This document shows positions 4,932 to 34,910 of a stretch of DNA of 64,000 bases, in pieces; within the stretch, counting starts at the first letter, position 1; each line of letters starts with the position of its first letter. Made by a program: the position numbers and the translations under genes. The notes under the pieces are model-generated. The model had not been told where the DNA came from, did no database searches, and saw only the letters and a list, made by a program, of their open reading frames with translations. Source of the stretch: a plasmid; the NCBI RefSeq assembly GCF_055900595.2, contig NZ_JBVWEU010000003.1; one strand, given 5' to 3'.

Positions 4932-5053
4932 GATAACTAATATCTGGATTAGTGAAAAAGAGTCATGATTATAATGACTGAATTTGATATTTACAATGGG
5001 GGGAGGGGTAATAAAATCAAATCGCCAGTAATATGATTTCTCTGTAAATAGTA

Positions 5054-5906
5054 ATGGTAGGTATATTTATGAGTTACATGCCCAAGAAAATTGAAGGGGC
5101 TTCTGTTGATGAGCTTGTGCTAAAAGGGGTTAAGCATATTATTAATAATGGCGAGAGAATATCCTCAAGAGCTGGAGGGGCTATTCAGGATTACGGAGTT
5201 ATATATGTTTTGTCCGATCCCCTAAACAGAGTTCATTCCTTGAGAAACGGAGCTATGAGGTATTTTGCAAGAGAGTTGATTGCCTATTTTTCAGGGAGTC
5301 TAAAGGTTGAGGATGGATTGGCTAAGGCATCAAAGTTTTGGGCATCGCTTGCAGATGAGAACGGGAATATAAACTCAAACTATGGATACTATGTGTTCCA
5401 TGAGAAAATAGATAAATATACAAATCAATATAATTGGGCTAAATGTGTCTTGTTAAAAAACAAAGATACCAGACGAGCCATAATCAATATAAATCAGGTT
5501 CGTCATAAGTCTGACACGAAAGATTTTCCCTGTACTGTAAGTATTCAGTTTTATATTAAAGATAATGAGTTGTACTGCGAAACTAATTCTCGAAGCACAG
5601 ATATTATAACAGGATTGCCATATGATATGGGATTTTTTTTCGTTTGTTCATGAGTTAATGTGGAAAGATCTTATCGAGAATGGATTGGAAGATTTGAAAC
5701 TTGGACCAACTATAATGAAAACAACATTTACTCAGATTTATGATAAAACAATAAATAAAGCATATGAAATTCTGAATAATGAATGTAATGATCTTAATGT
5801 TATAAATATGCCAAGTGTAATATCTGCTCAGGATACTTTAAATGATATAATGTCAGGAAGTTCGAAAACGGATGTTGTTAAGTGGATATATAAATATGCA
5901 GAGTAA
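5054..5906 (+). pseudogene. Thymidylate synthase-family enzyme (ThyA / dNMP C5-hydroxymethylase-like), split by a +1 frameshift in a T8 run near 5633-5640
   Basis: ORFs 5054..5653 and 5622..5906 together align with ThyA: DTRRAI versus DSRR, FPCT versus catalytic PCH, GLPYDMGFFSFVHELMW versus GLPFNIASYALLVHMM. Seven T's would restore a single ~280-aa frame. Confidence 0.7.
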
Positions 5907-6438
5907 AAAGAAAATATTCTTAACATCAAACAATCCAGCTAAAGTAGAAGCTGTCAAAATAGTTTGTTCTAAATTATTTGATGTTTTTTCTATCAAGCAT
6001 GAGGATATAGCGTCAGGTGTTAGTGATACTCCATTTACAGATGATGAGGCTATTTTAGGATGTTATACAAGAATTAATTCATCTGAGCATAATTTAAGTG
6101 AGCATGTGGATTACATTATTGCATTAGAAGGATTGATAGAGAAAAAATCATTTGGACAATTTGTTTATGGATGGGCTGTTATAAAGGAAATGGAAAGTTC
6201 GAGTTTTTTTTATGGATGTAGTGGGAAAGTTTATTTGCCAAATCGTGTTATGCAAAAGATGTCTTCCCAGAAAAGATTGTCTGATGTTGTTCTTGAGTTG
6301 TATCCAGGAACAAGTGCTGATGAGTTAAAGTTGATAGGAACGAATGGTGTATTGACCGGTGGACTATATACGAGAGCGATGGAGTTCGAGACAGCTTTAT
6401 TGTGTGCTTTCGGTTCTATGATGACAAGTAAAGTTTAA
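5896..6438 (+). CDS. YjjX-like non-canonical purine NTP phosphatase (inosine/xanthosine triphosphatase family)
   Basis: Aligns along its length with my recollection of E. coli YjjX (NNPAKVEAV; SGVSDTPF; YGWAVIKE; C-terminal GVLTGGLYTRA). Start taken at the internal ATG (MQSKKK). Confidence 0.6.
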   Translation: MQSKKKIFLTSNNPAKVEAVKIVCSKLFDVFSIKHEDIASGVSDTPFTDDEAILGCYTRINSSEHNLSEHVDYIIALEGLIEKKSFGQFVYGWAVIKEMESSSFFYGCSGKVYLPNRVMQKMSSQKRLSDVVLELYPGTSADELKLIGTNGVLTGGLYTRAMEFETALLCAFGSMMTSKV

Positions 6439-6453
6439 AAAAAAGGTGATATT

Positions 6454-7734
6454 ATGTTATTTAAAAAAGTAAATTTTCTTGATCATCATGATATGAGCTT
6501 TAGAAGAGGTGATATCCGTGTGATGGGTAATATGATCGTACAAATAGATGATGATCTGCAACCTATTGGAGATGAAGAGTTTGTTACATTGGATCATATG
6601 ATTGTTTTACCTGGGATTGTAAATGCACATCTACATCCAAGTAAGGAGATATATGGATGTTTATATGAATCAATGAACATAAATGATGTTCTTAACTCTG
6701 TTCATAAAAACAATAAAATGGAAACATCTGATGTGCAGTTTTTGTCTTCAACTAAAGCGTTAGTAAATGCATTAAAGAAAGGTGTTACAACATTAGGGTT
6801 ATTTACTAGTAGAGTTGATAGCGATTATGTTGCTGCTAAATGTGTTGGTGGGCGTTATGTTATAAATTTTTGTCAGAGTAATTACTGGTGCGCTGATGGT
6901 GTTCCTCCTGAAAGAATAGAGATCAGAGATATTATTAAAAACTACGATTTATATAGTAAACAAAAAAATGATTCTAAGATAATATTCTCAGCTGCAACAG
7001 CTTCTGAGTTATCTGCTGATGACCAATTGATCAAAAAATGTCATGATTATGCAGCAAGTAACAATTCAAGGTTTTTTATCCACATACATGAAGGTGCTGA
7101 ACAGGTTGCAAAACATAAATTACATTTTAATGAAAGTGGCATTAGTCGATTGTTTAGACTAGGGGTTTTAGATGAATATACAACTCTAATCCATGCAACT
7201 CATCTCTTGGATAGTGATCTTGATATTATTACCAGATCTCACTGTAATATAATTCATTGCCCTGTGAGTAATAGCTTTGTTACAGCGGGAACAATGCCAT
7301 TAAGAAAAATGATATCAGTAAATAGATTTGTTGGATTGGGTACTGATGCAGCTATGGTTAATCCAGTTAATGACATTACATTTGATGCACTTTTTGCTCT
7401 ATATCATCATGGTGACAGAAATTCTAACTTGAAAGTATCTGCCAGTGAAATAATAAATATGATCACATTTAAAGGAGCTGGAGCATTAGGATTGGATAAT
7501 ATAGGACTAATTAAAGCTGGTTATAAAGCAGATCTTATTTTTTTTGACTTGGAGAATATTGATGGCGATTATATAAATACGCCCGTATCTATATTGAAAA
7601 TGTTGCATAAAGAAACACCTATACATGTAATGGTTGATGGCAAGTTTATTATATACGAACATATGTTCGTGAATTGTAATTTTAATGATGAGCTTGAAAA
7701 ATACGCTTCTTTAAAAAAAGAGATTGTGAAATGA
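6454..7734 (+). CDS. Metal-dependent amidohydrolase-superfamily deaminase (cytosine/guanine/MTA-deaminase-like)
   Basis: 426 aa with N-terminal HxH metal motif (VNAHLHP) and downstream HATHL, HCPVSN, GLGTDA motifs typical of nucleobase or nucleoside deaminases. Confidence 0.75.
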   Translation: MLFKKVNFLDHHDMSFRRGDIRVMGNMIVQIDDDLQPIGDEEFVTLDHMIVLPGIVNAHLHPSKEIYGCLYESMNINDVLNSVHKNNKMETSDVQFLSSTKALVNALKKGVTTLGLFTSRVDSDYVAAKCVGGRYVINFCQSNYWCADGVPPERIEIRDIIKNYDLYSKQKNDSKIIFSAATASELSADDQLIKKCHDYAASNNSRFFIHIHEGAEQVAKHKLHFNESGISRLFRLGVLDEYTTLIHATHLLDSDLDIITRSHCNIIHCPVSNSFVTAGTMPLRKMISVNRFVGLGTDAAMVNPVNDITFDALFALYHHGDRNSNLKVSASEIINMITFKGAGALGLDNIGLIKAGYKADLIFFDLENIDGDYINTPVSILKMLHKETPIHVMVDGKFIIYEHMFVNCNFNDELEKYASLKKEIVK

Positions 7735-8339
7735 AAAATGTTGCATTTATTTTTTCAGGGAGAGGTAGTCTCGTTACAACTGTTTTGGATGCTATTAGAG
7801 ATAGTAAGACACAATCCAGATTATCCTTAATGATTACAAATAATGTCGAGTTTGATGAGAAATTTACCCCTAAGGGTGTTGATTTGGTTGTTTTAGACCG
7901 GAATGAGTATGTGAAAAGGAATGATTTTGAGAAAAAGATAATATTTGAGTTGAAAAAAAGAAATATTAGCTTAGTTATTCTTGGAGGTTTTAAATTCATT
8001 TTTTCAGAAAAATATGTTGATCTTTTTGGAAACATTACAATAAATACACATCCATCATTACTTCCTGCTTTTCCTGGAGATAAGGCGCAACAAAGGGCTT
8101 TAGCTAAAGGAGTTATATATACTGGTGCAACAATTCATTTTATAAATGAGCATGTTGATGATGGACCTATTATTGACCAAGAGGTTGTCAGGGTTGAAGA
8201 GGGTATGACGGAGTATGAGCTAAAGGAACAAATTATTGAAGTTGAAAAGATAATGATTTACAGATCTGTTAAGGCATTTCTCGACGGAAGATTATATTTA
8301 AAAAACAATCAGGTTATATATGGGGTTGATGATGTATAA
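7731..8339 (+). CDS. PurN-like formyltransferase (GAR transformylase fold)
   Basis: 202 aa; N-terminal FIFSGRGS, NTHPSLLPAFPG (Asn/His catalytic pair) and DDGPIIDQ (catalytic Asp) match the PurN family; ATGA overlap with the upstream gene. Confidence 0.8.
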   Translation: MKNVAFIFSGRGSLVTTVLDAIRDSKTQSRLSLMITNNVEFDEKFTPKGVDLVVLDRNEYVKRNDFEKKIIFELKKRNISLVILGGFKFIFSEKYVDLFGNITINTHPSLLPAFPGDKAQQRALAKGVIYTGATIHFINEHVDDGPIIDQEVVRVEEGMTEYELKEQIIEVEKIMIYRSVKAFLDGRLYLKNNQVIYGVDDV

Positions 8340-9519
8340 GATCAAAAATGATATACTTGCAGCTAGTTGTGTTGCCAGTATTCTGTTTGTGGCTATTATA
8401 TGTTTAGGATTGTCACTGGCAATATTACCCTTGTTTGTGAATAAAATATTACACTTGTCGCCTTTATTCGTTGGAGGAGTTATCTCTGTTGAGTCGATCT
8501 CTACATTGTTATCAAGAGCATCTTCTGGACGGTATTCAGATAAAAATGGCCCCAAAAAAGGAATGATTGCTGGTCTTACATTGATTGTTTTATCTGGTGT
8601 TCTTGTTTGTATATCTTTTGTTCTTAAAGAGAACGTTATTGCTTCATATATAGTGCTTATTATATCACGTATTATTATGGGGGTTGGTGAGAGTTTGGTT
8701 TTTACATGTAGCGGCACATGGCCTATAGGACTGGTTGGCAGGGAACATGCCGGGAAAATAATGTCATGGGTGGGGATTGCTATGTTCATGGGGCTGGCTT
8801 TAGGAAACTATATTGGTGTCTGGTCATTCTATAAATATAATATTATGGTGTCGGCCATTAGTATTACATTGTTTCCATTATTAGGGTTTATTATTGTCTG
8901 TATTGTCAGAAGTGTTCACTATCATCCCGATGTTATTTCTCCATCAATTGTTTATGGCATAAGAAAAATATGGAGAGCAGGAACAGGTTTTGCTCTCGCA
9001 AATATAGGATATGCATCAATCACCACATTTTTAGTTTTGCTTTTTATCGATAATGACTGGGGGAGATATAGTGCTCTTGGTTTATCTCTTTTTGGTATTG
9101 GGTATGTTACTTCCCGCTTAACAATAGGATGGGCGGCCGATCATGTAGGGTTAAAAACAACAATATTTTCACTTGGTCTTGAAGCTTTAGGATTATTATT
9201 TGTTGGTTTGTCAGTTAATATGTATCTGTCTATGTTTGGGGCTTTCTTAACAGGCTTCGGATTATCAATGGTGTATCCACTGTTGGCATTACCTGCAATT
9301 AAAAACATGCCAGAAGAAAATATTGGATTTGCAATTAGCCTTTATGAATCATGCTTTGATATTGGCATACTCATTTCCGGTTTTTTAGGCGGTCTGATTG
9401 TATCTTGCTTTGGGCTTCAATATATATTTTACTTTTCTTTTATATGTTGTCTGATCGCGATTCCTCTTTCTGTTATGGCATATCAGGTATCATCCACGTT
9501 AAATAAAGAATGCAGATAA
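8320..9519 (+). CDS. MFS transporter (likely efflux)
   Basis: 399 aa, about 12 predicted hydrophobic helices with glycine-rich loops; overlaps the purN-like stop, so probably co-transcribed. Confidence 0.8.
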   Translation: MGLMMYKIKNDILAASCVASILFVAIICLGLSLAILPLFVNKILHLSPLFVGGVISVESISTLLSRASSGRYSDKNGPKKGMIAGLTLIVLSGVLVCISFVLKENVIASYIVLIISRIIMGVGESLVFTCSGTWPIGLVGREHAGKIMSWVGIAMFMGLALGNYIGVWSFYKYNIMVSAISITLFPLLGFIIVCIVRSVHYHPDVISPSIVYGIRKIWRAGTGFALANIGYASITTFLVLLFIDNDWGRYSALGLSLFGIGYVTSRLTIGWAADHVGLKTTIFSLGLEALGLLFVGLSVNMYLSMFGAFLTGFGLSMVYPLLALPAIKNMPEENIGFAISLYESCFDIGILISGFLGGLIVSCFGLQYIFYFSFICCLIAIPLSVMAYQVSSTLNKECR

Positions 9520-10591: not shown

Positions 10592-12163
10592 TTACTGAGA
10601 GCTCAGATCAACTTTCCAGGGCAACAGATCGCGTACCCGGTTTGCCGACCAGTCCTGGATATGTTCAATGACGTAACGCAGCCACTTTTCTGGCTCCACA
10701 TTGTTCAGACGGCATGTGCCGATCAGCGAGTACAACACCGCCGCATGTTCACCACCGCTGTCGGAACCCGCGAACATCCAGTTTTTCCGGCCTACGGCCA
10801 CTCCCCGTAAGGCGTTCTCTGCGATGTTGTTGTCGATTTCCACCCAGCCATTACTGCAGTACACGTTCAGTGCATCCCACTGTTTCAGCAGGTATGCGAA
10901 CGCTTTTGCCGTATCTGAGTGACGCGACAGTGTTTTCATCTGAGTCTGTATCCAGTCGTACAGTGACTGCATCAGTGGCGCAGCTCTGGCTTTTCTTGCC
11001 GCCAGACGCTGTTCTGCTGAACATCCCCGGACCTCTGCCTCGATTGCATACAGTTCACCGATACGCTGCAGGGCTTCCGTGGTGATATCGGTAGGCGCTC
11101 TTGCATGCACATCGTGGATTTTTCTCCGGGCATGGGCCATACACGCGGCTTCCGTTATTCTGCCGGATTCGTATAACGCCCGGTAACCACCGTAAGCATC
11201 GGCCTGAAGCACACCGCTGTAACCGGCCAGGTGATTCTGTGGATGGATACCTTTCCGGTCCGGGCTGTACGCGAACCAGACCGCCGGGGGCATCTGTGAA
11301 CCGGTGTTACGGTCATCACGGACGTAAACCCACAGCCGGGCAGTTCTTGTTTTACCACTGCCCGGCTCCTGGACCGGAACGGGGATATCATCCGCATGGA
11401 CTTTACCGGGCATCAGCACATACTGGCGCAGCACGTCATACAGCGGCTCCAGCAGTTCAGCAACGGCACTGGTCCAGCGCCCCAGCGTGGCGCGGCTCAG
11501 TTCCACGCCCTGACGACGGTATATTTCTGACTGGCGGTATAACGGCAGATGGTCTGCATACTTCCCGGTGACGATATGAGCCAGAAGCCCCGCTCCGGCA
11601 TAACTGCGTGCAATGGGTTTTGAAGGTACTGGTGCCTGCACGATATGGTCGCACCGGCAACAGGCCAGTTTCGGACGTTGTGTTTCGATAACCTTAAAGG
11701 CGCTGCTGATAAGCTCCAGTTGCTCTGACACATCACATCCCAGAGAACTGAGTTCGCCACCACAAGCCGGGCAGCATTCCTCTTCCGGCCGGATAACCCG
11801 GGATTCACGGGGAAGTGCAGCCGGTAACGGTTTACGGGCTGAAGACTGGCGCAGGGAAGATGGCAGTGCCGGGTCATATTGCTCACCCAGTGTTTCCGCC
11901 ATTTCTTCCTGAAGTGCGCTGATTCGCTCCTGTGCTTCCTGTATCTGTCGTTCGGTTTTTGCGCGAAGTTTTTCTGAGCTTTTACCGAACTGCATGCGCT
12001 GCAGTTTTGCAACCAGCGCCTTCAGCCGGTTGATTTCAGAAGCATAAGCCGCCACCCGCTGTGAGAGCAGGCAATTGTATTCGGCCATCTGGCGGATGGT
12101 GTCCTGTTGCGCCTGCAACAGTGCCCGCAGGCGGGCGTTCTCATGAGCAAGTGAGGTGTCCAT
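10592..12163 (-). CDS. tnpC: IS66-family transposase TnpC
   Basis: 523 aa with an N-terminal coiled coil, a Cys cluster (CPACGG…CCRCDH) and a DDE-type core characteristic of IS66 TnpC. Confidence 0.9.
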
Positions 12164-12182
12164 ATCCTCACTTTACAACGGG

Positions 12183-12530
12183 TTATATGCGGATTCCAGC
12201 GCGTTCCGTTCGTTTTGGATGTTTCCAGTCGATGCCCTCAAGAAGCATGGATAACTGGGCCGGAGTAAGGTGCACCTTGCCGTCACGGGTGACCGGCCAG
12301 ACGAAGCGGCCCCGCTCCAGGCGTTTGGTGAAGAGGCACAGTCCGTCGCTGTCAGCCCACAACACTTTTATCTGGTCACCCCGGCGTCCGCGGAAGATGA
12401 ACAGGTGTCCGGAGAACGGGTCATTCTTCAGGACGTTCTGAACTTTTGAGGCCAGGCCGTTAAAGCCATTTCGCATGTCGGTGATACCGGCAACCAGCCA
12501 GATACGCGAACCTGCAGGGAGAGATATCAT
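12183..12530 (-). CDS. tnpB: IS66 Orf2 (TnpB)
   Basis: 115 aa with the conserved IS66 Orf2 signature (WLVAGITDMRNGFNGLA…GHLFIFRGRRGDQIKVLWAD). Confidence 0.9.
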   Translation of the reverse strand: MISLPAGSRIWLVAGITDMRNGFNGLASKVQNVLKNDPFSGHLFIFRGRRGDQIKVLWADSDGLCLFTKRLERGRFVWPVTRDGKVHLTPAQLSMLLEGIDWKHPKRTERAGIRI

Positions 12531-13207
12531 CAGTGGCTGCTCCCTTTCATTTCGCGGATAAGTGTCTGTAATAAGGCCGGTGTCAGTTCACCTTTCAGCC
12601 TGAGAGTTCCGGCCGGCAGAACCAGCTCACAGCACAGACTGTCGGACGGTGTATTTATCTGCTCTGGTTCCTGTGCCGGAGCCGGGATTTTATTATCCGG
12701 CTCCGGCGTTAACGTCACGGGAAGCAGTGCAGGCATATTTTTTCCGGAAGGCAGCAGGCCACCTTTCCGGTATTGATGGCGCCAGTTGAAGAGCAGGTTA
12801 TCGTTGATTCCGTTTTCACGGGCGATCTGCGCCACACAGGCTCCGGGCTGCAGTGACTGCTCCACTAAGGCGATTTTAAACTCATAAGGAAAATTAGGCC
12901 GCCGGGGACGTTTTTTTACCACCGGGACTTCGGACATAACGGTGTTTTCAGTAAGTACGACAGGTACTGTGGAGGCACTCCCGTAAAGACGGGCATCAAG
13001 TTCCCGCTCCGACATACCTGCGGGAAGAGGCCATGAAAGGCCAGCTTTGCGGAAGCGCACGAACATACCACAAACTGTTGATTTTGGTACGCCCAGGCGA
13101 CGTCCGGCCACAATCCGTGGTAAATGTTCTTCAAAGTGAAGACGTAAAGCTTCGGTGATCCAGGTCCGGTATTCCATACGATAGTGTCCATTAAAAATGA
13201 TGGACAT
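12530..13207 (-). CDS. tnpA: IS66 Orf1 (TnpA-like) with N-terminal HTH
   Basis: 225 aa; sits first in the three-gene IS66 arrangement and overlaps Orf2 by one base. Confidence 0.7.
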   Translation of the reverse strand: MSIIFNGHYRMEYRTWITEALRLHFEEHLPRIVAGRRLGVPKSTVCGMFVRFRKAGLSWPLPAGMSERELDARLYGSASTVPVVLTENTVMSEVPVVKKRPRRPNFPYEFKIALVEQSLQPGACVAQIARENGINDNLLFNWRHQYRKGGLLPSGKNMPALLPVTLTPEPDNKIPAPAQEPEQINTPSDSLCCELVLPAGTLRLKGELTPALLQTLIREMKGSSH

Positions 13208-13848: not shown

Positions 13849-14436
13849 ATGAAATATACACCGGTTGGCGTTGATATCGCAAAACATGTCATTCAGGTTC
13901 ACTTCATCAATGAGCACACAGGGGAAGTGGTGGATAAGCAGGTTCGTCGTCAGGATTTTCTGGCGTATTTCAGTAACCGCGAACCCTGCCTGATTGGCAT
14001 GGAAGCTTGTGGAGGCTCCCTGCACTGGGCGCGTGAATTAACAAAGCAGGGACACAAAGTCCGATTGTTGCAGGCTCGCTTCGTTAAAGCATTCGTCATG
14101 GGCAATAAGAATGACGTGATGGATGCGCGAGCTATCTGGATGGCGGTACAGCAGCCAGGCAAAGAAATCGCCGTCAAAACAGAAGAACAACAGTCAATAC
14201 TGGTTCTGCACCGTTCCCGCAGACAACTGGTGAAGTTCCGGACCGCGCAAATTAATGCCCTGCACGGGAGGTTACTGGAGTTTGGTGAAACCATTTCTTT
14301 TTCAGTCTGTATCGCAGAACTGCGTAATAATCTGAAGGAGAACTCTTCCTGGCTGGTTGCTCTCTGTGATTTCATTTTTGCACGTTTCAGGCAGTGCTGT
14401 ATTCGTCTCTGGATACAGATCCGATCATCTTCCTGA
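13849..14436 (+). pseudogene. IS110-family transposase, truncated or frameshifted
   Basis: The first ~150 aa (MKYTPVGVDIAKHVIQVHF…GMEACGGSLHWAREL…) match the IS110-family DEDD N-terminal domain; the ORF stops at 195 aa with a non-conserved tail. Confidence 0.55.
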
Positions 14437-14551: not shown

Positions 14552-15352
14552 ATGCTTTCTTCCCGGTATGTTATAGTTATTAAGATACTTTTGTCCCTGT
14601 TCTGTTCCGGAGTGAACATGATTTTTGTCTGTTCTGTTGTACTGGCTGGCAGGGCATTCACCCTGCAGTTTGCCGGGAAAATGCTGTCCCTTTCTGCAGG
14701 AGATGTGCTTCTGATTGATGATGCTGATCGTGAGGATTTTCAGCCTCATGCTGAGCATATCACTGAGGTGAGGCTGGATGAAAATATCATCCGCAGATAT
14801 CTGGAGAGTTGTGGCGGCAACCGGGAGGCCGACAACACGGTTTCTTCTGGTTTCATCAGAGTGGCCTTTGCTCATCCTGCGTTGTTGCGTGACGTTATGC
14901 ATCATCTGAATTCGGGAGGATTTGTTCATCCCGGATTTTCCGAGCAGATGTTTTTTTCCTGCATTGCTGTCTTTGCATCAAAAAAAGGCTTTCTTCCTTT
15001 GTTGCTGGGCGGAATGCTTTCTGTGGCCGGGAGAGTGAGGCATATCATCTGTACTGACCTTTCACGCCAGTGGAAGCTGCGGGATGTCAGCAGTCGTTTG
15101 TATATGAGTGAAAGTCAGCTGAAAAAGAAACTGAAGGAAGAAGGATGTTCGTTCACCGGAGTGCTTCTGGATGTGAGAATGGGCTATGCACGCCGTCTGT
15201 TACAGGCCCGTCTGCCGGTCAACAGGGTGGCCGCGCAGTGTGGTTATGTAAGCACATCTTATTTTATCTGCGTGTTCAGGGAATGTTTTGGCGTCACGCC
15301 TCACAGGATGCTGGCGCTTCAGGAGCACGGGCAGCATAAAAGTGAATGCTGA
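14552..15352 (+). CDS. AraC-family transcriptional regulator
   Basis: C-terminal double HTH (RDVSSRLYMSESQLKKKLKEEG…VAAQCGYVSTSYFICVFRECFGVTP); the true start may be the internal MIFVC. Confidence 0.7.
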   Translation: MLSSRYVIVIKILLSLFCSGVNMIFVCSVVLAGRAFTLQFAGKMLSLSAGDVLLIDDADREDFQPHAEHITEVRLDENIIRRYLESCGGNREADNTVSSGFIRVAFAHPALLRDVMHHLNSGGFVHPGFSEQMFFSCIAVFASKKGFLPLLLGGMLSVAGRVRHIICTDLSRQWKLRDVSSRLYMSESQLKKKLKEEGCSFTGVLLDVRMGYARRLLQARLPVNRVAAQCGYVSTSYFICVFRECFGVTPHRMLALQEHGQHKSEC

Positions 15353-16318: not shown

Positions 16319-16941
16319 AGAATAACCTCTTTCACTAACGCTTCGATTTCTTGCTGGGCTTTATCATTTTGCGTTTCAAAAATTGTCATTGATTCGGCCC
16401 AAGCATCTCGATGTGCTTTACGATCACATACCCGGGAGTTTGCCAGATGCATTTCAGGGTAATCCTTAAGTACTTCAGCTGCCTCATTGGCTTCATTAAC
16501 AAACATATTTGTGGGCGTCATGTTTAAAACGAGATATCCCCGAACATCCCCATTAAAATCTTTTGCTGCTGTAAAAACGGAGCATGTATGAGGCACAACA
16601 TCCAGGTCCATCTGAGATGGGCGCAAAGGAGAAATGAATACATCTGCGGCCATCAATCCACTACGCATTTCTGCGCTATCACGGCCAGCACAGTCTGCAA
16701 TAACAAAATCATAGGATTTTTCGTGTTCCTTTAACATGGCTTTGATGTTACCTGTCGCGCCTGTAACCGGAATATGAGGGAGATCTTCAGGGCGATTGTT
16801 GTACCAGGTTAATACTGATTTCTGGTCATCTGCGTCGACAATAATCACTCTATTGCCTAGTGACATCAGATACGCAGCTATAGATACCGCCAGTGTACTT
16901 TTACCTACCCCACCCTTTTGACTACCTAATACTATTATCAT
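16315..16941 (-). CDS. parA: ParA-family partition ATPase (type Ib)
   Basis: Deviant Walker A motif KGGVGKST at the N-terminus; 208 aa. Confidence 0.9.
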   Translation of the reverse strand: MIIVLGSQKGGVGKSTLAVSIAAYLMSLGNRVIIVDADDQKSVLTWYNNRPEDLPHIPVTGATGNIKAMLKEHEKSYDFVIADCAGRDSAEMRSGLMAADVFISPLRPSQMDLDVVPHTCSVFTAAKDFNGDVRGYLVLNMTPTNMFVNEANEAAEVLKDYPEMHLANSRVCDRKAHRDAWAESMTIFETQNDKAQQEIEALVKEVIL

Positions 16942-16949
16942 TATAGCCT

Positions 16950-17120
16950 CATATTAAGTTGTTAAGTTAACAACTTAATATTGCCATCTGAACGCGAATC
17001 ATGCAATTATTTTTGTTATATTAACAACTTAACAAGTTATTAAGTATTTGATTTATAGATTAATTAATATAACAAGATAACAAGACAACAAGATAACAAG
17101 ATAACAAGATAACAATATTA
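16950..17120. promoter_or_regulatory. par promoter/operator region with palindromes (AAGTTGTTAAGTTAACAACTTAA) and upstream AAGATAAC iterons
   Basis: Read from sequence immediately upstream of the parA start. Confidence 0.5.
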
Positions 17121-17136
17121 TGGGTGGATTACATAT

Positions 17137-18408
17137 TCATAACTGGGCTACTGGCAAATCTGTCCATCTGGTGGTATACGCAGGAGAAAGCATTTCCCGT
17201 TTCATTTGCCACTCAGGGGCGGTTCCTCGCCCCGCAAACCACACTTTCCCTTTTCCCGACTGGTTCAGTTCATCGAGTGTTTTCATTAACTTTTCACTGT
17301 TTTTACGGGGCTGGATTTCATCAAATAATCCCGGCTGCGCTATACCCGATGGTGTGAAATCAGCCAGCATGACTCCTGCCTTCATATAGCGGTACCCTTC
17401 ACGCCAGACATGGTTTAAGGCCCTGCATGCGGCGGCAATAATGTCCCGGCTGTCCTGTGTGGGCAATGAAAGCTTTTCCACAGCGGCATTGCTGTAACAG
17501 GGTTCTTTTACTGCAAAGGGGGATGTCCGTACAAATGTCGTCACCTGCCGGCAATACTGACGTTCCCCACGTAGTTTCTCTGCGGCCCGCTCTGCATACT
17601 GAACAACAGCCTGGTGCATGGCATCTTTGTCTGTGATTCGTTCACCAAAACTGCGACTACAGACAATCTGCTGTTTTGCCGGTGGTGCTTCTTCCAGGGA
17701 TATGCAGGACTCGCCGTTGAGTTCGCGTACCGTACGCTCAAGAATGACGCTGAAGTTTTTCCGGATGAATGCCGTGTTAGCCTGCGCCAGCTGCAGTGCT
17801 GTGTTAATACCCAGCGCATTCAGCTTTTCCGTCAGTCTGCGTCCTACTCCCCAGACCTCACCAACTGGCTGCAGCCCCAGTAGCTTCAAGATCCGATTAC
17901 GGTTTTCTGCCGTCAGCGCGACCACACCGGAAAACTGTGGCCATTGCTTTGTTGCCCACTGTGCACTTTTAGCCAGCGTTTTTGTAGGCGCAATGCCCAC
18001 CCCCATGGTGAGTCCTGTCCAGCTCTTTACCTGTTCCCTGAGCTGATGACCAAAAACCTCCGGAGAGATGCAATGATTTATCCCCCGCAAATCAATGAAC
18101 ATTTCATCAATTGAGTAGGGCTCAACTGCGGGAGAAAGCGACTCCAGAACAGCCATAACCCGTTGGCTCATGCTGTGGTACAGCGCATAATTGCTGGAAA
18201 ATACATGTATTTTCTTCTCCAGGCGCATCTGTCTCACCTGAAACCAGGGCTGCCCCATTCTGATGCCAAGGGCTTTTGCCTCCGGGCTGCGCGCGATCAC
18301 ACAGCCATCGTTATTGCTGAGTACGATGACCGGTTCGTTGCGAAGGTCCGGGCGGAAAACTTTTTCACATGAGGCGTAGAAACTGTTGATATCAGCCAGT
18401 GCAAACAT
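17137..18408 (-). CDS. impB: Y-family error-prone DNA polymerase subunit (UmuC/MucB/ImpB)
   Basis: 423 aa starting MFALADINSFYASCE…, the conserved Y-family polymerase N-terminus. Confidence 0.9.
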   Translation of the reverse strand: MFALADINSFYASCEKVFRPDLRNEPVIVLSNNDGCVIARSPEAKALGIRMGQPWFQVRQMRLEKKIHVFSSNYALYHSMSQRVMAVLESLSPAVEPYSIDEMFIDLRGINHCISPEVFGHQLREQVKSWTGLTMGVGIAPTKTLAKSAQWATKQWPQFSGVVALTAENRNRILKLLGLQPVGEVWGVGRRLTEKLNALGINTALQLAQANTAFIRKNFSVILERTVRELNGESCISLEEAPPAKQQIVCSRSFGERITDKDAMHQAVVQYAERAAEKLRGERQYCRQVTTFVRTSPFAVKEPCYSNAAVEKLSLPTQDSRDIIAAACRALNHVWREGYRYMKAGVMLADFTPSGIAQPGLFDEIQPRKNSEKLMKTLDELNQSGKGKVWFAGRGTAPEWQMKREMLSPAYTTRWTDLPVAQL

Positions 18409-18845
18409 CAGCGTAACTCCCGCGTCCTGTGTATCACGTGAGTGACAACACCAAAAATACAGATGTTTTCCGGATACAGTGTGCGGAACTCCGGGCTGTC
18501 TGAAACCGGCTCCAGTGCCGGGCGTGGGCGCAACAGCAGTCGTTTGACGGTGAACTCACCGTCGATCTCAGCGATAACGATGTCCCCGTGTTGTGGTTTT
18601 TCGGCCCTGTCCACTACCAGCAGATCACCATTCTGCACGCCAGCCTGGTTCATCGATTCACCGCTGGCGCGCAGAAAGAAGGTGGCTGCAGGTCTGCTGA
18701 TGCAATAGCTGTTCAGATCCAGTTCCTGCTCAGCATAATCAGTGGCAGGCGAAGGAAAACCGGCCTGGCAACGATCGGCAAACAACGGTCGCACGTAACT
18801 GTCATCGCCTGAAGGGTCAGCCGGACGGTGATAAACGGTACTCAT
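18408..18845 (-). CDS. impA: UmuD/MucA/ImpA-like LexA-type self-cleaving protein
   Basis: 145 aa with S24 peptidase-like signatures (GESMNQAG… and a downstream Lys); overlaps the impB start. Confidence 0.85.
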   Translation of the reverse strand: MSTVYHRPADPSGDDSYVRPLFADRCQAGFPSPATDYAEQELDLNSYCISRPAATFFLRASGESMNQAGVQNGDLLVVDRAEKPQHGDIVIAEIDGEFTVKRLLLRPRPALEPVSDSPEFRTLYPENICIFGVVTHVIHRTRELR

Positions 18846-19090
18846 GCTGCAGGCAGCCAGCTGTCGTCCTGCCAGATTTCTTCCAGCAGAGACAGGATAC
18901 GTTCTTTATCCTTGTCGTTGCGGGCTCCTGTGACAGATACAGACGGGGCGCTGCCCTGGTCTATACGCAGCCAGATTTCCGGGTAGTGTGGTTTCAGACG
19001 TTGTTCGATTTCATTCTGTAGCGCCTGAAGTGTGCCTGATTTGAGGTTTTTTGTGCTCTGGCGGTCGAAAAGAATTTCAATGCGGATCAT
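18842..19090 (-). CDS. impC: DinI-like protein (ImpC)
   Basis: MIRIEILFDRQ…LLEEIWQDDSW resembles DinI; start taken at the internal ATG; the longer ORF to 19150 begins with GTG. Confidence 0.65.
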   Translation of the reverse strand: MIRIEILFDRQSTKNLKSGTLQALQNEIEQRLKPHYPEIWLRIDQGSAPSVSVTGARNDKDKERILSLLEEIWQDDSWLPAA

Positions 19091-19113
19091 GTTCTCATCT
19101 CCCTTTTCTTTTG

Positions 19114-19129
19114 CTGTATGTATATACAG
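19114..19129. promoter_or_regulatory. LexA (SOS) box CTGTATGTATATACAG
   Basis: Perfect CTGT-N8-ACAG palindrome immediately upstream of impC. Confidence 0.7.
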
Positions 19130-19777
19130 TATTCTAATAACTGAATCCACACACAGTCAAATGTCATTATTGTGACTAAAAAACGCTCAATTCTCTGAGG
19201 GTGTGGCTGTATGCCTGCTGTGGACTGCTGTGTCCAGCTTATCCACAGCATTTTGCGCACGGTTCTGTGAATAAAATACCTGGTTACCCAGGCCGTGCCG
19301 GCACGTTAACCGGGCTGCATCCAATGCAAGTGTGTCGCTGTCGCCGGCATCCTCACCAGGTCACTCAGCAGTCAGGGAGAAAAATGGCGGATGAAGTATG
19401 ACGGAGACGGTCGGGCAAGTGCCCGTTTCTTTTCCGACAAAGGATGTCGCCGTGCTCCTCTTTTTACTGCGCCGGCTGACGCGGCGCGGCATAAACGCTG
19501 CCTGTGGTCAGTGTCCCGCGTCCGGCGGGCACGGGACGGGCGCTTTTACCGCTCCCGGCTGGCGTCGGTGACAGTGTACGCCAGCCCGTCGCCCTTTTCT
19601 GATGAACGCCCTTCAAGCCGCTTTCGCGGCATAGCCTTGCCGTCAGAAAGACGACGGCTGCGGTATTCCACGGTCGGCCTGACCCGTTACCGGACGCGGT
19701 GAACAGCCCACAGGCAGCGGGGAACGGGCACCACAGGGGTGCCCTCCCGGTGCCTTCTGTAAGAGAAGGAGGCTTTT

Positions 19778-20461
19778 ATGTCCCGTTTTATCCTGGGTGA
19801 CTGCGTGCGAGTTATGGCCACGTTTCCGGACAATGCTGTCGATTTCATCCTCACCGACCCGCCGTATCTCGTCGGTTTCCGTGACCGTTCCGGGCGCACC
19901 ATCGCCGGCGATAAAACCGACGAATGGCTGCAACCGGCCTGTAATGAGATGTACCGCGTGCTGAAAAAAGACGCGCTGATGGTGAGCTTCTATGGCTGGA
20001 ACCGCGTCGATCGCTTTATGTCTGCCTGGAAAAATGCGGGATTCAGCGTTGTTGGTCACCTGGTCTTCACCAAAAACTACACATCGAAGGCCGCATATGT
20101 GGGCTATCGCCACGAATGCGCCTACATCCTGGCAAAAGGCCGTCCACGTCTGCCACAAAACCCGCTGCCGGACGTGCTGGGCTGGAAATATTCAGGCAAT
20201 CGTCATCACCCGACGGAAAAGCCTGTTACCAGCCTGCAACCGCTGATTGAGAGCTTCACACACCCGAACGCAATTGTGCTGGACCCGTTTGCAGGCAGCG
20301 GCTCAACCTGCGTTGCCGCCCTCCAGTCCGGACGCCGGTATATCGGTATCGAGCTGCTTGAGCAGTATCACCGTGCCGGACAGCAACGACTGGCCGCCGT
20401 GCAACGGGCCATGCAGCAGGGGGCCGCGAATGATGACTGGTTTATGCCGGAGGCTGCGTAA
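19778..20461 (+). CDS. Orphan DNA N6-adenine/N4-cytosine methyltransferase
   Basis: DPPY catalytic motif near the N-terminus and a C-terminal FAGSGST SAM-binding motif; no adjacent restriction enzyme. Confidence 0.85.
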   Translation: MSRFILGDCVRVMATFPDNAVDFILTDPPYLVGFRDRSGRTIAGDKTDEWLQPACNEMYRVLKKDALMVSFYGWNRVDRFMSAWKNAGFSVVGHLVFTKNYTSKAAYVGYRHECAYILAKGRPRLPQNPLPDVLGWKYSGNRHHPTEKPVTSLQPLIESFTHPNAIVLDPFAGSGSTCVAALQSGRRYIGIELLEQYHRAGQQRLAAVQRAMQQGAANDDWFMPEAA

Positions 20462-22011: not shown

Positions 22012-22350
22012 AGTCGCCGCAGGCTCCGCTTTACCCGGCCATGCGGGGCATGGCCTTGTGGGTTTTCAGTTATGTGGCCTCAGCGTCGTGTGCGGGCTGT
22101 GCCGTGCCTCCATCGTAGCCGGGCTTCTGCGGGCGGGTTGCAAGGTAAGGTGAACCGCTGCGGTCACCCGGTCCCTCCTTCCCGTCTGCCGTGATTTTCC
22201 GGTCGTTCACCCGCTCAGATTTCGCGGTCTCACCCTCCAACTCCCGTCAGCCGTGTGCGTCAGGCTGCGGCTTCCCTTGCGCCCTTGCAACCCTGCAGGC
22301 CCGGCAAAGATGGAGGCACGGCACCGCCCGGTGTCGCGGAATATGTGAAC
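22012..22350. repeat. Leading-region structured repeat, family A, copy 1 (upstream of klcA)
   Basis: About 340 bp nearly identical to 28968-29306; GC-rich with multiple hairpins; the ORFs drawn across it are probably spurious. Confidence 0.7.
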
Positions 22351-23652: not shown

Positions 23653-24150
23653 CTTCGGCTCCCGGCTGCCTGACGGCATCCGGTCGTCAGGCCCGACTCC
23701 GACAGGCAGCTGCTGGCGCACCCGCCAGTCTCCGCCGAACCCGCTGGCGCGGTTTCGGGCTGTCGCTACGGTCCGATGCGTGAAAACCCGGGCTTGCAGC
23801 GACCGTTCCGGTCGCGCCGCCCCTGTCGCGCCGTGACCTGCGCTCCCTGCACACCTGACGGTGTGTGAGGAAACTGCGCCTGATGGCGCAGCAGTCCTCC
23901 CTCCTGCCGCCACCCCTGCGGCCTGTTTCCCGCTGTGGACTTTCCGGGGGGCAGACGTAACCCCCTCCCGTTCCATCTGTCCAGGGTGAGATGCACCGGC
24001 CACAAAATTTTTAGCCATGAACCCGGCAAAAAATTTTGCGTCCGCCCCCGGACAGCTGCCCCGTGAGGCGGTAAACGGGCCCCCATCGGAAAGGTCCACT
24101 GCGGGGAGAAACCCCTGTGAAGTGGACGGCAGGAGGAGCTTTCGCTCCTC
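23653..24150. repeat. Leading-region structured repeat, family B, copy 1 (upstream of ssb; single-strand-promoter-like)
   Basis: About 500 bp shared with 30005-30512 and, in part, 33030-33365; contains hairpins CACACCTGACGGTGTG and CTGCGCCTGATGGCGCAG. Confidence 0.65.
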
Positions 24151-24219: not shown

Positions 24220-24747
24220 ATGAGTGCACGTGGTATCAACAAGGTCATCCTCGTCGGGCGTCTGGGCAATGATCCGGAAGTCCGTTACATCCCCAACGGG
24301 GGTGCAGTGGCAAACCTGCAGGTGGCTACGTCAGAAAGCTGGCGCGACAAACAGACGGGGGAGATGCGGGAGCAGACGGAATGGCACCGCGTGGTGCTGT
24401 TCGGCAAGCTCGCGGAAGTGGCAGGTGAATATCTGCGCAAGGGCGCGCAGGTCTACATCGAGGGGCAACTCCGTACCCGTAGCTGGGAAGATAACGGTAT
24501 CACCCGTTACGTCACTGAAATTCTTGTTAAGACCACGGGCACCATGCAGATGCTGGGGAGTGCACCACAGCAGAACGCTCAGGCGCAACCGAAGCCTCAG
24601 CAGAATGGGCAGCCACAGAGTGCTGACGCGACGAAAAAAGGTGGCGCGAAAACGAAAGGCCGTGGACGTAAGGCCGCGCAGCCCGAGTCTCAGCCGCAAC
24701 CGCCGGAGGGGGAGGATTACGGGTTTTCAGACGATATCCCGTTCTGA
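24220..24747 (+). CDS. ssb: Plasmid single-stranded DNA-binding protein
   Basis: OB-fold N-terminus ([23 protein letters not shown]…), Gln/Pro-rich linker and acidic tail DDIPF. Confidence 0.95.
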
Positions 24748-27114: not shown

Positions 27115-27549
27115 ATGAAAACTGAACTGACCCTGAATGTATTACAGACCATGAGTGCACAGGAATATGAAGATATCCGTGCTGCGGGAAGCGATATGCG
27201 CCGTAATCTCACTCACGAGGTGATGCGTGAAGTGGACGCACCGGCTAACTGGATGATGAATGGCGAGTATGGCAGTGAGTTCGGGGGCTTTTTCCCCGTC
27301 CAGGTTCGTTTCACGCCAGCCCACGAACGTTTCCACCTGGTATTATGTTCGCCGGGAGAAGTCTCTCAGCTCTGGATGCTGGTTCTGGTGAATGGTGGTG
27401 GACAGCCTTTCGCCGTCGTTCAGGTGCAACATATCTTCACGCCTGTCGCGATCAGTCACACGCTGGCGCTCGCCGCGACACTTGATGCGCAGGGATACAG
27501 TGTTAACGACATCATTCATATTTTGATGGCAGAAGGAGGTCAGGCATGA
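27115..27549 (+). CDS. psiB: Plasmid SOS-inhibition protein PsiB
   Basis: [26 protein letters not shown]… matches PsiB; ATG follows the track's GTG by one codon. Confidence 0.9.
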
Positions 27550-28265
27550 GCGCACGTTCACGGGCACTGATCCCCCTCAGCGCAGAACAACAGGCCGCCA
27601 TGCAGGCTGTGGCTGTCACCGAACAACGTCGTCGTCAGGGACGCACACTTTCAGCATGGCCTTATGCCAGCGCTTTCTTTCGCTGCCTGAATGGCAGTCG
27701 CCGGATTTCGCTGACCGATCTCCGCTTTTTTGCTCCTGCGCTGACGAAGGAGGAATTTCATGGCAACCGTCTCCTGTGGCTGGCTGCCGTGGATAAACTG
27801 ATTGAAAGTTTTGGTGAAGTCTGTGTTCTTCCCCTGCCATCCGATGCGGGGCACCGTCTGTTCCCGTCCGTTCCTTTTCGTGAAGGTGAGCGTCGTCGTC
27901 AGAAAACCACGCTGACAGAGCAGAAATACAGCCGCCAGCGGGAACGTGAGGCAGAACGACGGGAACTGGAATACCAGACATGTTTTGCTCAGGCGCAGAT
28001 TGACCTTGCGTTTCATACTCCCTCCACGGTCGGAAGCTGGTTGTCCCGCTGGTCTGGTGTTGTTGAGGAGCATGATCTGGAAACGATTTTCTGGGGGTGG
28101 TGCGGGCGTTTTCCGTCACTGTCATCATTTGACCGTTTTTTCTGGCAGGAGGAACCACTCTGGCGGCTGATTTTTGAAGCCGGTGAGGCCGGTCGTGGTG
28201 CACCGGTACAGGTACGTGCACTTGAGCAGTGGATGATCCCGAACAAGCTGGAGAACGTAATATGA
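27546..28265 (+). CDS. psiA: Plasmid SOS-inhibition protein PsiA
   Basis: 239 aa immediately after psiB with a 4-bp overlap; the canonical psiB-psiA pair. Confidence 0.85.
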
Positions 28266-28967: not shown

Positions 28968-29306
28968 CGTCGCCGCCGGCTCCGCTTTTACCCGGCCATG
29001 CGGGGCATGGCCTTGTGGGTTTTCAGTTATGTGGCCGCCGTGTCGTGTGCGGGCTGTGCCGTGCCTCCATCGTAGCCGGGCTTCTGCGGGCGGGATGCAA
29101 GGTAAGATGAACCGCTGCGGTCACCCGGTCCCTCCTTCCCGTCTGCCGTGATTTTCCGGTCGTTCACCCGCTCAGATTTCGCGGTCTCACCCTCCAACTC
29201 CCGTCAGCCGTGCGCGTCGGGCTGCGGCTTTCCTTGCGCCCTTGCATCCCTGCAGGCCCGGCAAAGATGGAGGCACGGCACCGCCCGGTGTCGCAGAACA
29301 TGTGAC
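28968..29306. repeat. Leading-region structured repeat, family A, copy 2 (upstream of ardA)
   Basis: Near-identical to 22012-22350. Confidence 0.7.
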
Positions 29307-30004: not shown

Positions 30005-30512
30005 CCTTCGGCTCCCGGCTGCCTGGCGGCATCCGGTCGTCAGGCCCGACTCCGACAGGCAGCTGCTGGCGCACCCGCCAGTCTCCGCCGAACCCGCTGG
30101 CGCGGTTTCGGGCTGCCGCTACGGTCCGATGTCTGAAAAACCAGGCCTGCAGCGACCGTTCCGGTCGCGCCGCCCCTGTCGCGCCGGAAACGGCGCTCCC
30201 TGCACACCTGACGGTGTGTAAGGCCACTGCGCCTGATGGCGCAGTTGTCTGCCCTTCCGCCGCCACCCCTGCGGCCTGTTTCCCGCTGTGGACTTTCCGG
30301 GGGCTGAAGCGGCCACAACACGTTTCAGCCGTCCAGGGGAGAGATGTACCAGCCACAAAACTTTTTGCCGCAGGCGTCAAAAACTTTTGCGTCTGCCCCC
30401 GGACAACTGCCCCGTGCCGTGGCAGTCGCTGCCCCATCGGAAAGGTCCACTGCGGGGAGAAACCCCGAAGAAGTGGACGGCAGAAGGGGCTTTCGCCCCT
30501 CCGGGGAATAAC
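30005..30512. repeat. Leading-region structured repeat, family B, copy 2
   Basis: Shares the hairpin-rich sequence with copy 1; immediately precedes the ORF at 30555. Confidence 0.65.
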
Positions 30513-33029: not shown

Positions 33030-33365
33030 TTCTCCGGTCGCGCCGGATGCGGCGCTCCCTGCACACCTGACGGTGTGTAAGGCCACTGCGCCTGATGGCG
33101 CAGCTGTCTCTGCCTGTCTGCCGCCGCACTGCGGCCCGTTCTCCGCAGACGGACTTTCCGGGGGTACATACACGACCACATCCCGTTTCAGTCGTCCAGG
33201 GGAGAGATGTACCAGCCACAAAACTTTTTGCCGCAGGCGTCAAAAACTTTTGCGTCTGCCCCCGGACAACTGCCCCGTGACGTGGTGAGCGTCCCCCGTC
33301 GGAAAGGTCCACTGCGGGGAAATCCCCGAAGACCCGGACGGCAGAAGGAGCTTCGCTCCTCCGGG
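33030..33365. repeat. Leading-region structured repeat, family B, copy 3 (partial)
   Basis: Shares the distal ~330 bp of copies 1 and 2; precedes the ORF at 33410. Confidence 0.6.
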
Positions 33366-34719: not shown

Positions 34720-34910
34720 TATCATCAAAAACTGACTCCTGGCAGGGCTGCGCCCTGCCTCTGCCGTCTGCATAAGACTATGATGCACAAAAATAACAGG
34801 CTATAATTGCATGAAAAACGGGACAGGATGTGGGAATGTCGGACCGCGCACGCGCACTCAGACATTCCCCACCTGGTCAGGGCTTTGCCCCGACACCCCG
34901 GTAAGGAGCA
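34720..34910. other. Origin of transfer (oriT) region
   Basis: Inverted repeats GGCAGGGC-TGC-GCCCTGCC and GGGAATGTC…GACATTCCC; minus-strand GGTGTCGGGGCAAAGCCCTGACCAGGTGG resembles the R64-type nick region as I recall it; lies directly upstream of nikA. Confidence 0.55.

Follow-up and report, generated by a model that had tools for sequence, protein, structure and literature searches.

A probably canonical impCAB operon with a strong predicted LexA operator at the edge of a plasmid leading region

The 64-kb stretch of plasmid DNA analysed here in full (the window) carries a three-gene operon that is very probably the canonical impCAB operon of the I-complex (IncI1/B/O/K/Z) conjugative plasmids, that is, the plasmid equivalent of umuDC preceded by a dinI-like gene. 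Judged by its sequence, it is a plasmid Pol V-type operon of the umuDC/mucAB/impAB family, with predicted cleavage and lesion-bypass activities, and a LexA box that overlaps its promoter makes it a predicted member of the SOS (LexA) regulon, LexA binding at this copy resting on homology. Earlier publications already cover the operon and its LexA box, how it responds when LexA is lost, the toxicity of its overexpression and its position at the edge of the leading region. Plasmid Pol V genes bear on stress-induced mutagenesis in the hosts of resistance plasmids, and the present copy adds no new angle to that subject; its practical use is as an annotation anchor. With the transfer origin near 34.8 kb, it marks where, near 19.1 kb, the leading-region anti-defence island has its distal edge, and it also serves to identify the transferred strand.

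RESULTS

The impCAB genes and their products

Three co-directional genes, impC, impA and impB, occupy positions 17137-19090 on the minus strand (Table 1); their stop and start codons overlap, and all three reading frames are intact. The names that the first-pass annotation had given them are correct. ImpB has a score of 797 bits with the NCBIfam UmuC subfamily (cut-off 431) and contains the Pfam domains IMS, IMS_C, IMS_HHH and DUF4113; in alignments with solved Pol IV structures, its Asp6 and Asp101-Glu102 fall on the catalytic acidic residues. ImpA reaches 143 bits with the NCBIfam model of the Pol V autoproteolytic subunit (cut-off 110), matches Pfam Peptidase_S24 and is 50% identical to E. 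coli UmuD, with Ala28-Gly29, Ser64 and Lys101 aligned to UmuD Cys24-Gly25, Ser60 and Lys97. ImpC is recognised by Pfam DinI at 65 bits (cut-off 24.2) and matches the solved E. coli DinI structure 1GHH over 77 residues (E = 7e-6); since it falls below the NCBIfam DinI equivalog cut-off (41 bits versus 111), it is not a DinI equivalog. The stop codon of impC and the ATG of impA overlap as ATGA, and impA lies immediately upstream of impB, the stop codon of the former sharing 1 nt, at 18408, with the ATG of the latter (TGATG). These overlaps suggest that the three frames may be translationally coupled.

Table 1. Positions of the imp operon, its predicted control elements and the leading-region features discussed in the text
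Feature	Position	Strand	Description
impB	17137..18408	-	UmuC-like Y-family DNA polymerase catalytic subunit, 423 aa
impA	18408..18845	-	UmuD-like subunit, predicted to be self-cleaving, 145 aa
impC	18842..19090	-	opens the operon; product a small DinI-like protein of 82 aa
Shine-Dalgarno-like GGGAGA	19098..19103	-	7-8 nt upstream of the impC ATG; read from the sequence
Strong LexA operator (predicted) TACTGTATATACATACAGCA	19112..19131	-	16-nt core at 19114-19129
Predicted imp promoter	19131..19160	-	-35 TTGACT at 19160-19155, 18-nt spacer, -10 TAGAAT at 19136-19131
Weak LexA-like site AACTGAATCCACACACAGTC	19139..19158	+	covers the -35 hexamer and spacer
Repeat upstream of ssb	23653..24150		one of three dispersed copies
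Plasmid ssb	24220..24747	+	NCBIfam plasmid SSB subfamily, 386 bits (cut-off 265)
psiB	27115..27549	+	SOS inhibitor of the conjugation system, 144 aa; 265 bits with the NCBIfam PsiB equivalog model (cut-off 100)
psiA	27546..28265	+	carries the name 'plasmid SOS inhibition protein A'; 376 bits with the NCBIfam model (cut-off 243)
Transfer-origin core	34823..34871	-	nic-like motif CATCCTG|T, 8 nt after the inverted repeat GGGAATGTC...GACATTCCC

The promoter and the LexA operator

The predicted imp promoter agrees with the consensus at 10 of 12 positions and is the top sigma-70-like site within 16900-19800. The strong operator begins at the last base of its -10 hexamer and ends 21 nt before the impC ATG (19090). 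The core, CTGTATGTATATACAG, is the sole CTGT-N8-ACAG in the window, and no other 20-mer in the 64 kb lies within 6 mismatches of the LexA consensus. A perfect LexA box upstream of impC-impA-impB had been claimed; the description is right for the 16-nt core only, because over the full 20-mer, taken on the gene strand, agreement with the consensus is 18 of 20.

A box of this kind could in principle have arisen by chance, or the operon could be a remnant in decay that has lost its regulation or function: the loose CTGT-N8-ACAG pattern by itself is expected 0.73 times per window by chance, and some IncF plasmids have had the promoter and the left half of the LexA box replaced, with no impB listed. 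We consider this extremely improbable here, given that the 20-mer match is expected only 0.01 times by chance, that the box abuts the -10 hexamer and is identical in R64 and pTF2, that the Imp proteins of pTF2 respond to loss of LexA and, against decay, that none of the three frames is interrupted.

The evidence on control comes from a 2025 study of the IncI1 plasmid pTF2, whose impCAB box, at -21, has a heterology index of 1.60; the operator described here is identical to it and stands at the same distance. In a LexA-defective strain, the pTF2 proteins ImpC, ImpA and ImpB rose 21-fold, 9-fold and 2-fold, respectively. The identity of the operators together with these rises bears out the earlier claim that imp is under LexA control. 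What the published pTF2 data demonstrate is LexA dependence, not induction by a DNA-damaging drug, because ciprofloxacin at half the MIC caused no significant rise in plasmid proteins.

The weak second site, AACTGAATCCACACACAGTC, has 7 mismatches to the LexA consensus. It exactly matches the pTF2 site at -48, for which the same study gave a heterology index of 13.49, and the corresponding weak box of R64 differs from it by one base. Binding of LexA at 19139-19158 is doubtful.

Among the other CTG-N10-CAG matches in the window, each has at least 8 mismatches to the LexA consensus. The pattern is in excess (42 matches versus 19 in shuffled sequences), and this might be read as a sign of many hidden LexA sites; we rejected that reading because the frequencies of the trinucleotides CTG and CAG would by themselves give about 50 sites. 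The LexA box of the pTF2 dqlB upstream region is absent from the window, even when 2 mismatches are allowed. Separately, an AgrB-type antisense RNA is present in the window.

Distribution and selection

The 2.5-kb imp segment is 100% identical in many I-complex plasmids. Of 72,556 plasmid records, 2,523 contain a segment comprising impC and the promoter, and 2,513 of the copies are at least 95% identical, which leaves few diverged homologues for comparing operator conservation. The imp genes are reported to be conserved under purifying selection across 460 I-complex plasmids, with a published median dN/dS of 0.11 for ImpB.

These values bear on whether imp might be mainly a boundary or maintenance element, with polymerase activity secondary. 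Such an element might modulate RecA or the SOS checkpoint through ImpC and uncleaved ImpA, or might serve the leading-region island as a transcriptional stop. The idea draws on the recurrence of umuCD homologues as the terminating boundary of anti-defence islands, where their role on plasmids has been described as unclear (Samuel et al., Nature 2024), on the much stronger rise of ImpC and ImpA than of ImpB in pTF2, on the DinI-like nature of ImpC and on the published toxicity of impCAB overexpression. Nevertheless, ImpB is full length, its catalytic residues are intact and it is under purifying selection. On the chromosome, too, the catalytic subunit UmuC is typically present at low levels. 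Moreover, the titles of papers on TP110 and on Shigella pINV report imp-dependent UV protection and mutagenesis. On balance, a role mainly as a boundary or maintenance element is unlikely, and we retain the reading of imp as a Pol V-type mutagenesis operon.

psiB, psiA and the leading region

Both psiB and psiA are present on the same plasmid and in its leading region, as had been noted; their family scores exceed the cut-offs, and their layout is that of R64. They do not, however, lie beside the operon, from which they are separated by 8 kb and about ten genes, and they are on the opposite strand. PsiB is 96% identical to R64 PsiB. The accompanying description of psiA as an SOS inhibitor is not upheld, since published work credits SOS suppression to psiB only; in pED208, deletion or supply of psiA did not suppress SOS.

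The two genes close a plus-strand run of ssb, DUF905, parB-like, psiB and psiA, an order shared by R64 and pEGY2 and oriented for reading from the transferred strand. The repeat upstream of ssb belongs to the direct-repeat families D2-D4, whose other copies lie at 30006-30501 and 33034-33285, and its minus strand (23653-24150) folds better than shuffled sequences (z = -3.6). By analogy, it is probably a Frpo/ssi-type single-stranded-DNA promoter element that would drive early ssb-psiB expression. This assignment is modelled on the three ssi repeats described for ColIb-P9. Just upstream of the imp promoter, the minus strand of 19140-19480 also folds better than shuffled sequences (z = -3.3); this segment falls outside the three-copy family of the ssb-upstream element, and the conserved part at 19385-19780 is a different widespread leading-region repeat.

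The transfer origin and the direction of entry

The transfer-origin core lies upstream of nikA and a nikB-like relaxase gene (35259-37979; MOBP), with RP4 and R64 as the models for its predicted nick position. Because the nic-like motif is on the minus strand, that strand is the predicted transferred strand, entering leftwards. The early genes (methylase, ssb, psiB, psiA) all lie on the plus strand. Counted from the transfer origin, the island comprises ardA, psiA, psiB, ssb, KlcA-like and methylase genes in one orientation, and the oppositely oriented imp operon stands at its end, within about 15.7 kb of the transfer origin and thus in the first-entering region.

DISCUSSION

A working model of the operon can be outlined. 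In an undamaged cell, host LexA would occupy the strong operator, which covers the likely transcription start, and keep imp repressed, a step that the pTF2 data show in part; the weak second site over the -35 hexamer may assist. Under persistent DNA damage, RecA filaments would promote self-cleavage of LexA and so imp transcription, a sequence of events that, apart from the LexA dependence, is taken from homologous systems. Homology likewise predicts that ImpA would cleave itself at Ala28-Gly29 on the RecA filament, using Ser64 and Lys101, and that a dimer of the product, ImpA', would join ImpB to form an error-prone lesion-bypass polymerase. As for ImpC, our guess is that this DinI-like protein probably tempers the RecA-dependent processing of ImpA.

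The first-pass annotation had also called the coexistence of mutagenic polymerase genes and an SOS dampener noteworthy for evolvability during transfer. Such a link is not supported, in view of the orientation of the operon, a published survey and the SOS data for R64drd. The transferred strand is the coding strand of imp, not its template, and the operon would therefore be unreadable from incoming single-stranded DNA. In the survey, 90.3% of leading-region umu-like genes are oriented in that way, and it was concluded that genes so oriented are not expressed early (Samuel et al., Nature 2024). Work on R64drd has shown that psiB is transiently expressed from a single-stranded-DNA promoter, that it inhibits RecA activation in E. 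coli recipients and that transfer into such recipients does not induce SOS.

We infer from this that psiB and imp act at different times. PsiB would be made transiently at plasmid entry and would block RecA filament formation on the incoming strand, and imp would be transcribed only once the complementary strand had been made, when LexA of the recipient could already occupy the box. Because transcription would have to await that strand, by which time LexA could be on the box, imp in its usual hosts would work in established cells, contributing there to damage tolerance and induced mutagenesis, and would not act as a mutator during transfer.

It could be argued instead that imp comes on during transfer or shortly after it, with higher mutation rates in new transconjugants as the result, and that psiB only sets the size of the burst. 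The place of the operon in the first-entering region fits this argument, as does the finding that conjugative single-stranded DNA induces SOS where PsiB is not effective, for example upon entry of R64drd into V. cholerae. Set against these points are the transfer of the coding strand, the survey conclusion, the absence of SOS on R64drd transfer into E. coli, the LexA already present in the recipient together with a very strong imp box, and the published observation that deletion of impCAB leaves the conjugation frequency unchanged. Expression of imp at transfer is, in our assessment, distinctly improbable, and a role in established cells is preferred.

A further possibility, which we regard as speculative and rather unlikely, is that the opposite orientation of imp, its very tight LexA box and a RecA-specific PsiB form a host-dependent gate. 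If so, PsiB would keep SOS off and imp would be silent at entry into familiar enterobacterial hosts; where the host RecA escapes PsiB, for which R64drd in V. cholerae offers a precedent, transfer-induced SOS would persist and imp would be derepressed after synthesis of the complementary strand. The burst of mutagenesis would then fall precisely in unfamiliar hosts.

Comparison with known systems

The arrangement had been called worth noting, but seeing it as special is not supported, since it is the standard layout of R64, the IncI1 reference plasmid. Gene order, overlapping junctions, promoter and strong LexA box are all shared with R64, and in both plasmids the imp operon is placed alike with respect to the methylase, ssb, psiB, psiA and ardA genes. 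The R64 proteins ImpA (WP_000109071.1) and ImpC (WP_000618110.1) bear the accessions of the pEGY2 copy, which is 100% identical to the present one, and R64 ImpB is 98% identical to that described here. Homology between the two plasmids breaks near 17190, so that the last ~16 codons of impB differ, as does everything downstream, where a ParA-type partition module stands here in place of ParM/ParR. No DUF1281 gene is found here between imp and the methylase gene, its usual place.

In pTF2, the promoter as well as the strong LexA box is identical to that of the present operon. By description, TP110 and the Shigella flexneri virulence plasmid carry close known impCAB systems with the same three-gene order. 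Samuel et al. (Nature 2024) described anti-defence islands of the leading region that umu-like operons delimit; the window is a textbook example of these, in which we found no difference.

The chromosomal counterparts are umuDC and dinI of E. coli. The position of the cleavage site and the Ser/Lys pair are conserved between ImpA and UmuD, ImpB belongs to the UmuC subfamily, ImpC is of the DinI fold family, and a LexA box lies at the promoter in both systems. The genes umuD and umuC overlap by 1 nt, as do impA and impB. The umuDC operator has a heterology index of about 2.8, and by this measure the imp operator, at its published value, is the tighter of the two. The present system differs in being plasmid-borne, in having the dinI-like gene joined into the same operon and in an Ala-Gly cleavage site in ImpA, as in LexA and MucA, instead of the Cys-Gly of UmuD. 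Other LexA-controlled pairs of UmuD-like and UmuC-like genes on mobile elements are mucAB (pKM101/R46), samAB and rumAB; by description, these are two-gene operons that lack the dinI-like first gene of impCAB.

The impCAB operon and its LexA site

Three genes that run in the same direction on the minus strand, together with the sequences that control them, occupy 17137-19130 (Table); this plasmid SOS mutagenesis operon of the polymerase V type is already a known feature. Stop and start codons overlap at both junctions, impC-impA as ATGA and impA-impB, with one base in common, as TGATG. A GGGAGA ribosome-binding site lies 7-8 nt upstream of the impC ATG at 19090, which fits the RefSeq protein of 82 aa; a longer impC frame from a GTG was rejected as an ORF-calling artefact. 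ImpC matches the structure of E. coli DinI (1GHH, E = 7e-6) and is called DinI-like, not DinI, because its score does not reach the equivalog cut-off of the NCBIfam DinI model. ImpA shares 50% identity with E. coli UmuD: the cleavage site Cys24-Gly25 of UmuD aligns with Ala28-Gly29, and its catalytic Ser60 and Lys97 with Ser64 and Lys101. The UmuD sequence compared is consistent with the ImpA alignment to PDB 8gmt_B. In ImpB, Asp6 and Asp101-Glu102 align with the catalytic acidic residues of Pol IV enzymes of known structure. At the level of sequence, family membership and intact active-site residues are established, and the Imp proteins look functional. On the UmuDC paradigm, RecA would stimulate cleavage of ImpA to ImpA', ImpB and ImpA' dimers would form a lesion-bypass polymerase, and ImpC may modulate RecA.

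Coordinates of the operon, its control sites, the psi genes and the transfer-origin region
Feature	Position	Strand	Length	Remarks
impC	19090-18842	-	82 aa	Pfam DinI, 65 bits
impA	18845-18408	-	145 aa	NCBIfam polymerase V autoproteolytic subunit, 143 bits (cut-off 110); Peptidase_S24
impB	18408-17137	-	423 aa	NCBIfam UmuC subfamily, 797 bits (cut-off 431); IMS, IMS_C, IMS_HHH, DUF4113
Predicted imp promoter	-35 TTGACT 19160-19155; -10 TAGAAT 19136-19131	-	18-nt spacer	10/12 matches
LexA box TACTGTATATACATACAGCA	19131-19112	-	20 nt	18/20 to consensus
Second, poor LexA-like site AACTGAATCCACACACAGTC	19139-19158			spans -35 hexamer and spacer
psiB	27115-27549	+		genuine
psiA	27546-28265	+		genuine
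Transfer-origin region GGGAATGTC...GACATTCCC, AC, ATCCTG/T	34871-34823	-		upstream of nikA and MOBP relaxase gene (35259-37979)

The top sigma-70-like promoter predicted within 16900-19800 carries a strong LexA box: the -10 hexamer shares its final base with the start of the 20-mer TACTGTATATACATACAGCA, which stops 21 nt short of the impC ATG. Its 16-nt core is the sole CTGT-N8-ACAG in the window, a pattern that alone is weak evidence (0.73 expected by chance); the consensus agreement of the full 20-mer has a chance expectation of 0.01, and no other 20-mer in the whole 64 kb lies within six mismatches of the LexA consensus. The same scan found no LexA-like site close to ssb or psiB. A window-wide excess of CTG-N10-CAG, considered as a sign of many hidden LexA sites, is accounted for by trinucleotide frequencies, and that reading was rejected.

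For the IncI1 plasmid pTF2, the identical 20-mer is listed at -21 (heterology index 1.60) and the identical weak site at -48 (index 13.49), and imp is derepressed in a LexA-defective strain, where proteomics found ImpC up 21-fold, ImpA 9-fold and ImpB 2-fold (PMC12211044, 2025). A transposon study of I-complex plasmids (PMC10286972, 2023) reported that the impCAB genes are conserved under purifying selection and that their overexpression is severely toxic. A LexA box present by chance, or a dead operon, is excluded. The first-pass annotation's identification of impCAB is borne out by the family scores, the LexA box and the match to R64, an IncI1 reference plasmid. Its condition for refutation was a lack of induction by DNA damage; the pTF2 work answers this as far as LexA dependence is concerned, but half-MIC ciprofloxacin changed few proteins there and drug induction of imp was not demonstrated (PMC12211044).

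psiB, psiA and the direction of transfer

The psi genes, which close a run of ssb, DUF905, parB-like, psiB and psiA, had been described as an SOS dampener lying beside the operon; they are 8 kb from it and on the opposite strand, and of the two only psiB suppresses SOS, and psiA may even work against that suppression. The inverted repeat of the transfer origin is followed, 8 nt on, by a nick-region motif that we take to be of the RP4/R64 type. Since this motif is on the minus strand, the minus strand should be the one transferred, with entry proceeding leftwards from about 34.8 kb. That strand would be the template of the early genes (methylase, ssb, psiB and psiA), which all lie on the plus strand; for impCAB it would be the coding strand, and thus no impCAB transcription is expected before the complement is made. 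Its orientation, the LexA that a recipient already contains and the R64 data all disfavour expression of impCAB during transfer; the proposal of evolvability during transfer is unsupported. Transfer of R64drd leaves SOS uninduced in E. coli recipients and induces it in V. cholerae, where RecA escapes PsiB. Orientation and literature together suggest that psiB would act transiently at plasmid entry, and that impCAB would act at a later stage, when an established host is under sustained damage.

Deletion of impCAB did not alter conjugation frequency (PMC12211044). The operon, assigned to the leading transfer region (PMC10286972), has its canonical position and orientation here, and a 2024 survey found that anti-defence islands of leading regions are often bounded terminally by umuCD homologues (PMC11541004). 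A mainly regulatory or boundary role for impCAB is possible but unproven.

Repeats, rearrangements and other features

Downstream of the operon, the 8-nt unit ATAACAAG is repeated in tandem, in 5.9 copies, at 17069-17115. This array, similar TTAACAAC units and inverted repeats fill the interval from the impB stop to the start of parA (17021-17115, 16953-17040), and they probably form the centromere or operator of a partition module of the ParA type; nothing resembling a terminator was found between the two genes. In L002 (CP077390.1; 3380-3540 against window 19125-19230), the imp promoter and left LexA half-box are swapped for unrelated sequence, homology to the window begins at 19125 and no impB is listed. 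The replaced promoter is found in some IncF plasmids, adjoining a ClbS/DfsB-like gene and an ISL3 element, and this type of IncF imp segment is a disrupted or deregulated operon remnant.

Upstream of the methylase gene, 19385-19780 is a leading-region repeat widespread in at least 5,000 plasmids, overlapped by an annotated 'hypothetical protein' frame (19391-19702). Elsewhere two copies usually flank a DUF1281 gene, which is absent here, as if deleted through recombination between them; only 65 records have the DUF1281-less arrangement at 80% query coverage or more. Dispersed repeat copies at 23653-24150, 30006-30501 and 33034-33285 probably correspond to the repeats described in ColIb-P9 as single-stranded-DNA promoters (Frpo/ssi). 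Distinct from these is a 300-nt repeat whose copies, 97% identical, lie at 22030-22329 (upstream of a KlcA-like gene) and 28987-29286 (after psiA).

A rare cargo cluster at 3948-9519 comprises a minus-strand LysR regulator and five plus-strand genes, for a thymidylate-synthase-like protein (199 aa), an ITPase/DUF84-like NTPase, a TRZ/ATZ-type amidohydrolase or deaminase, a PurN-like formyltransferase and an MFS transporter. None of its proteins reaches an equivalog cut-off, the gene content suggests nucleoside or nucleotide modification and export, and just 2 of 72,556 plasmid records, both from chicken E. coli, contain the cluster in full. It is followed by an IS66 element (10592-13207) and, adjoining this, an apparent transposase-like frame fragment (13849-14436, 195 aa) that lies between the cluster and a YdeO/AraC-like regulator (14552-15352); these surroundings suggest a rearranged insertion hotspot. 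On the minus strand, 43098-43187 matches Rfam AgrB (RF02891; 50.4 bits, gathering score 40), which is the antisense RNA in type I toxin loci of the dinQ type. On pTF2 a LexA box is reported upstream of dqlB, a related gene; it was looked for in the window and not found.

Comparison with R64 and other plasmids

Many plasmids of E. coli, Shigella and Klebsiella, among them pEGY2 (typed IncK2/Z, MOBP and MPF_I), carry the 2.5 kb containing the operon at 100% identity. The impC and promoter segment occurs in 2,523 of the 72,556 records, and only ten of these copies fall below 95% identity. R64 is laid out like the window, with impB, impA and impC on one strand and the methylase, KlcA-like antirestriction, ssb, DUF905, parB-like, psiB, psiA and ardA genes opposite. 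It shares its ImpA and ImpC accessions with the identical pEGY2 copy, its ImpB and PsiB are 98% and 96% identical to those of the window, and its promoter and strong LexA box are the same, the weak box differing by one base. R64 homology stops about 50 nt ahead of the impB stop codon, at a mosaic junction within impB (about 17137-17190), so that the last 16 or so ImpB residues and all downstream belong to a different backbone segment; here the window carries the ParA-type module, whereas R64 carries ParM/ParR.
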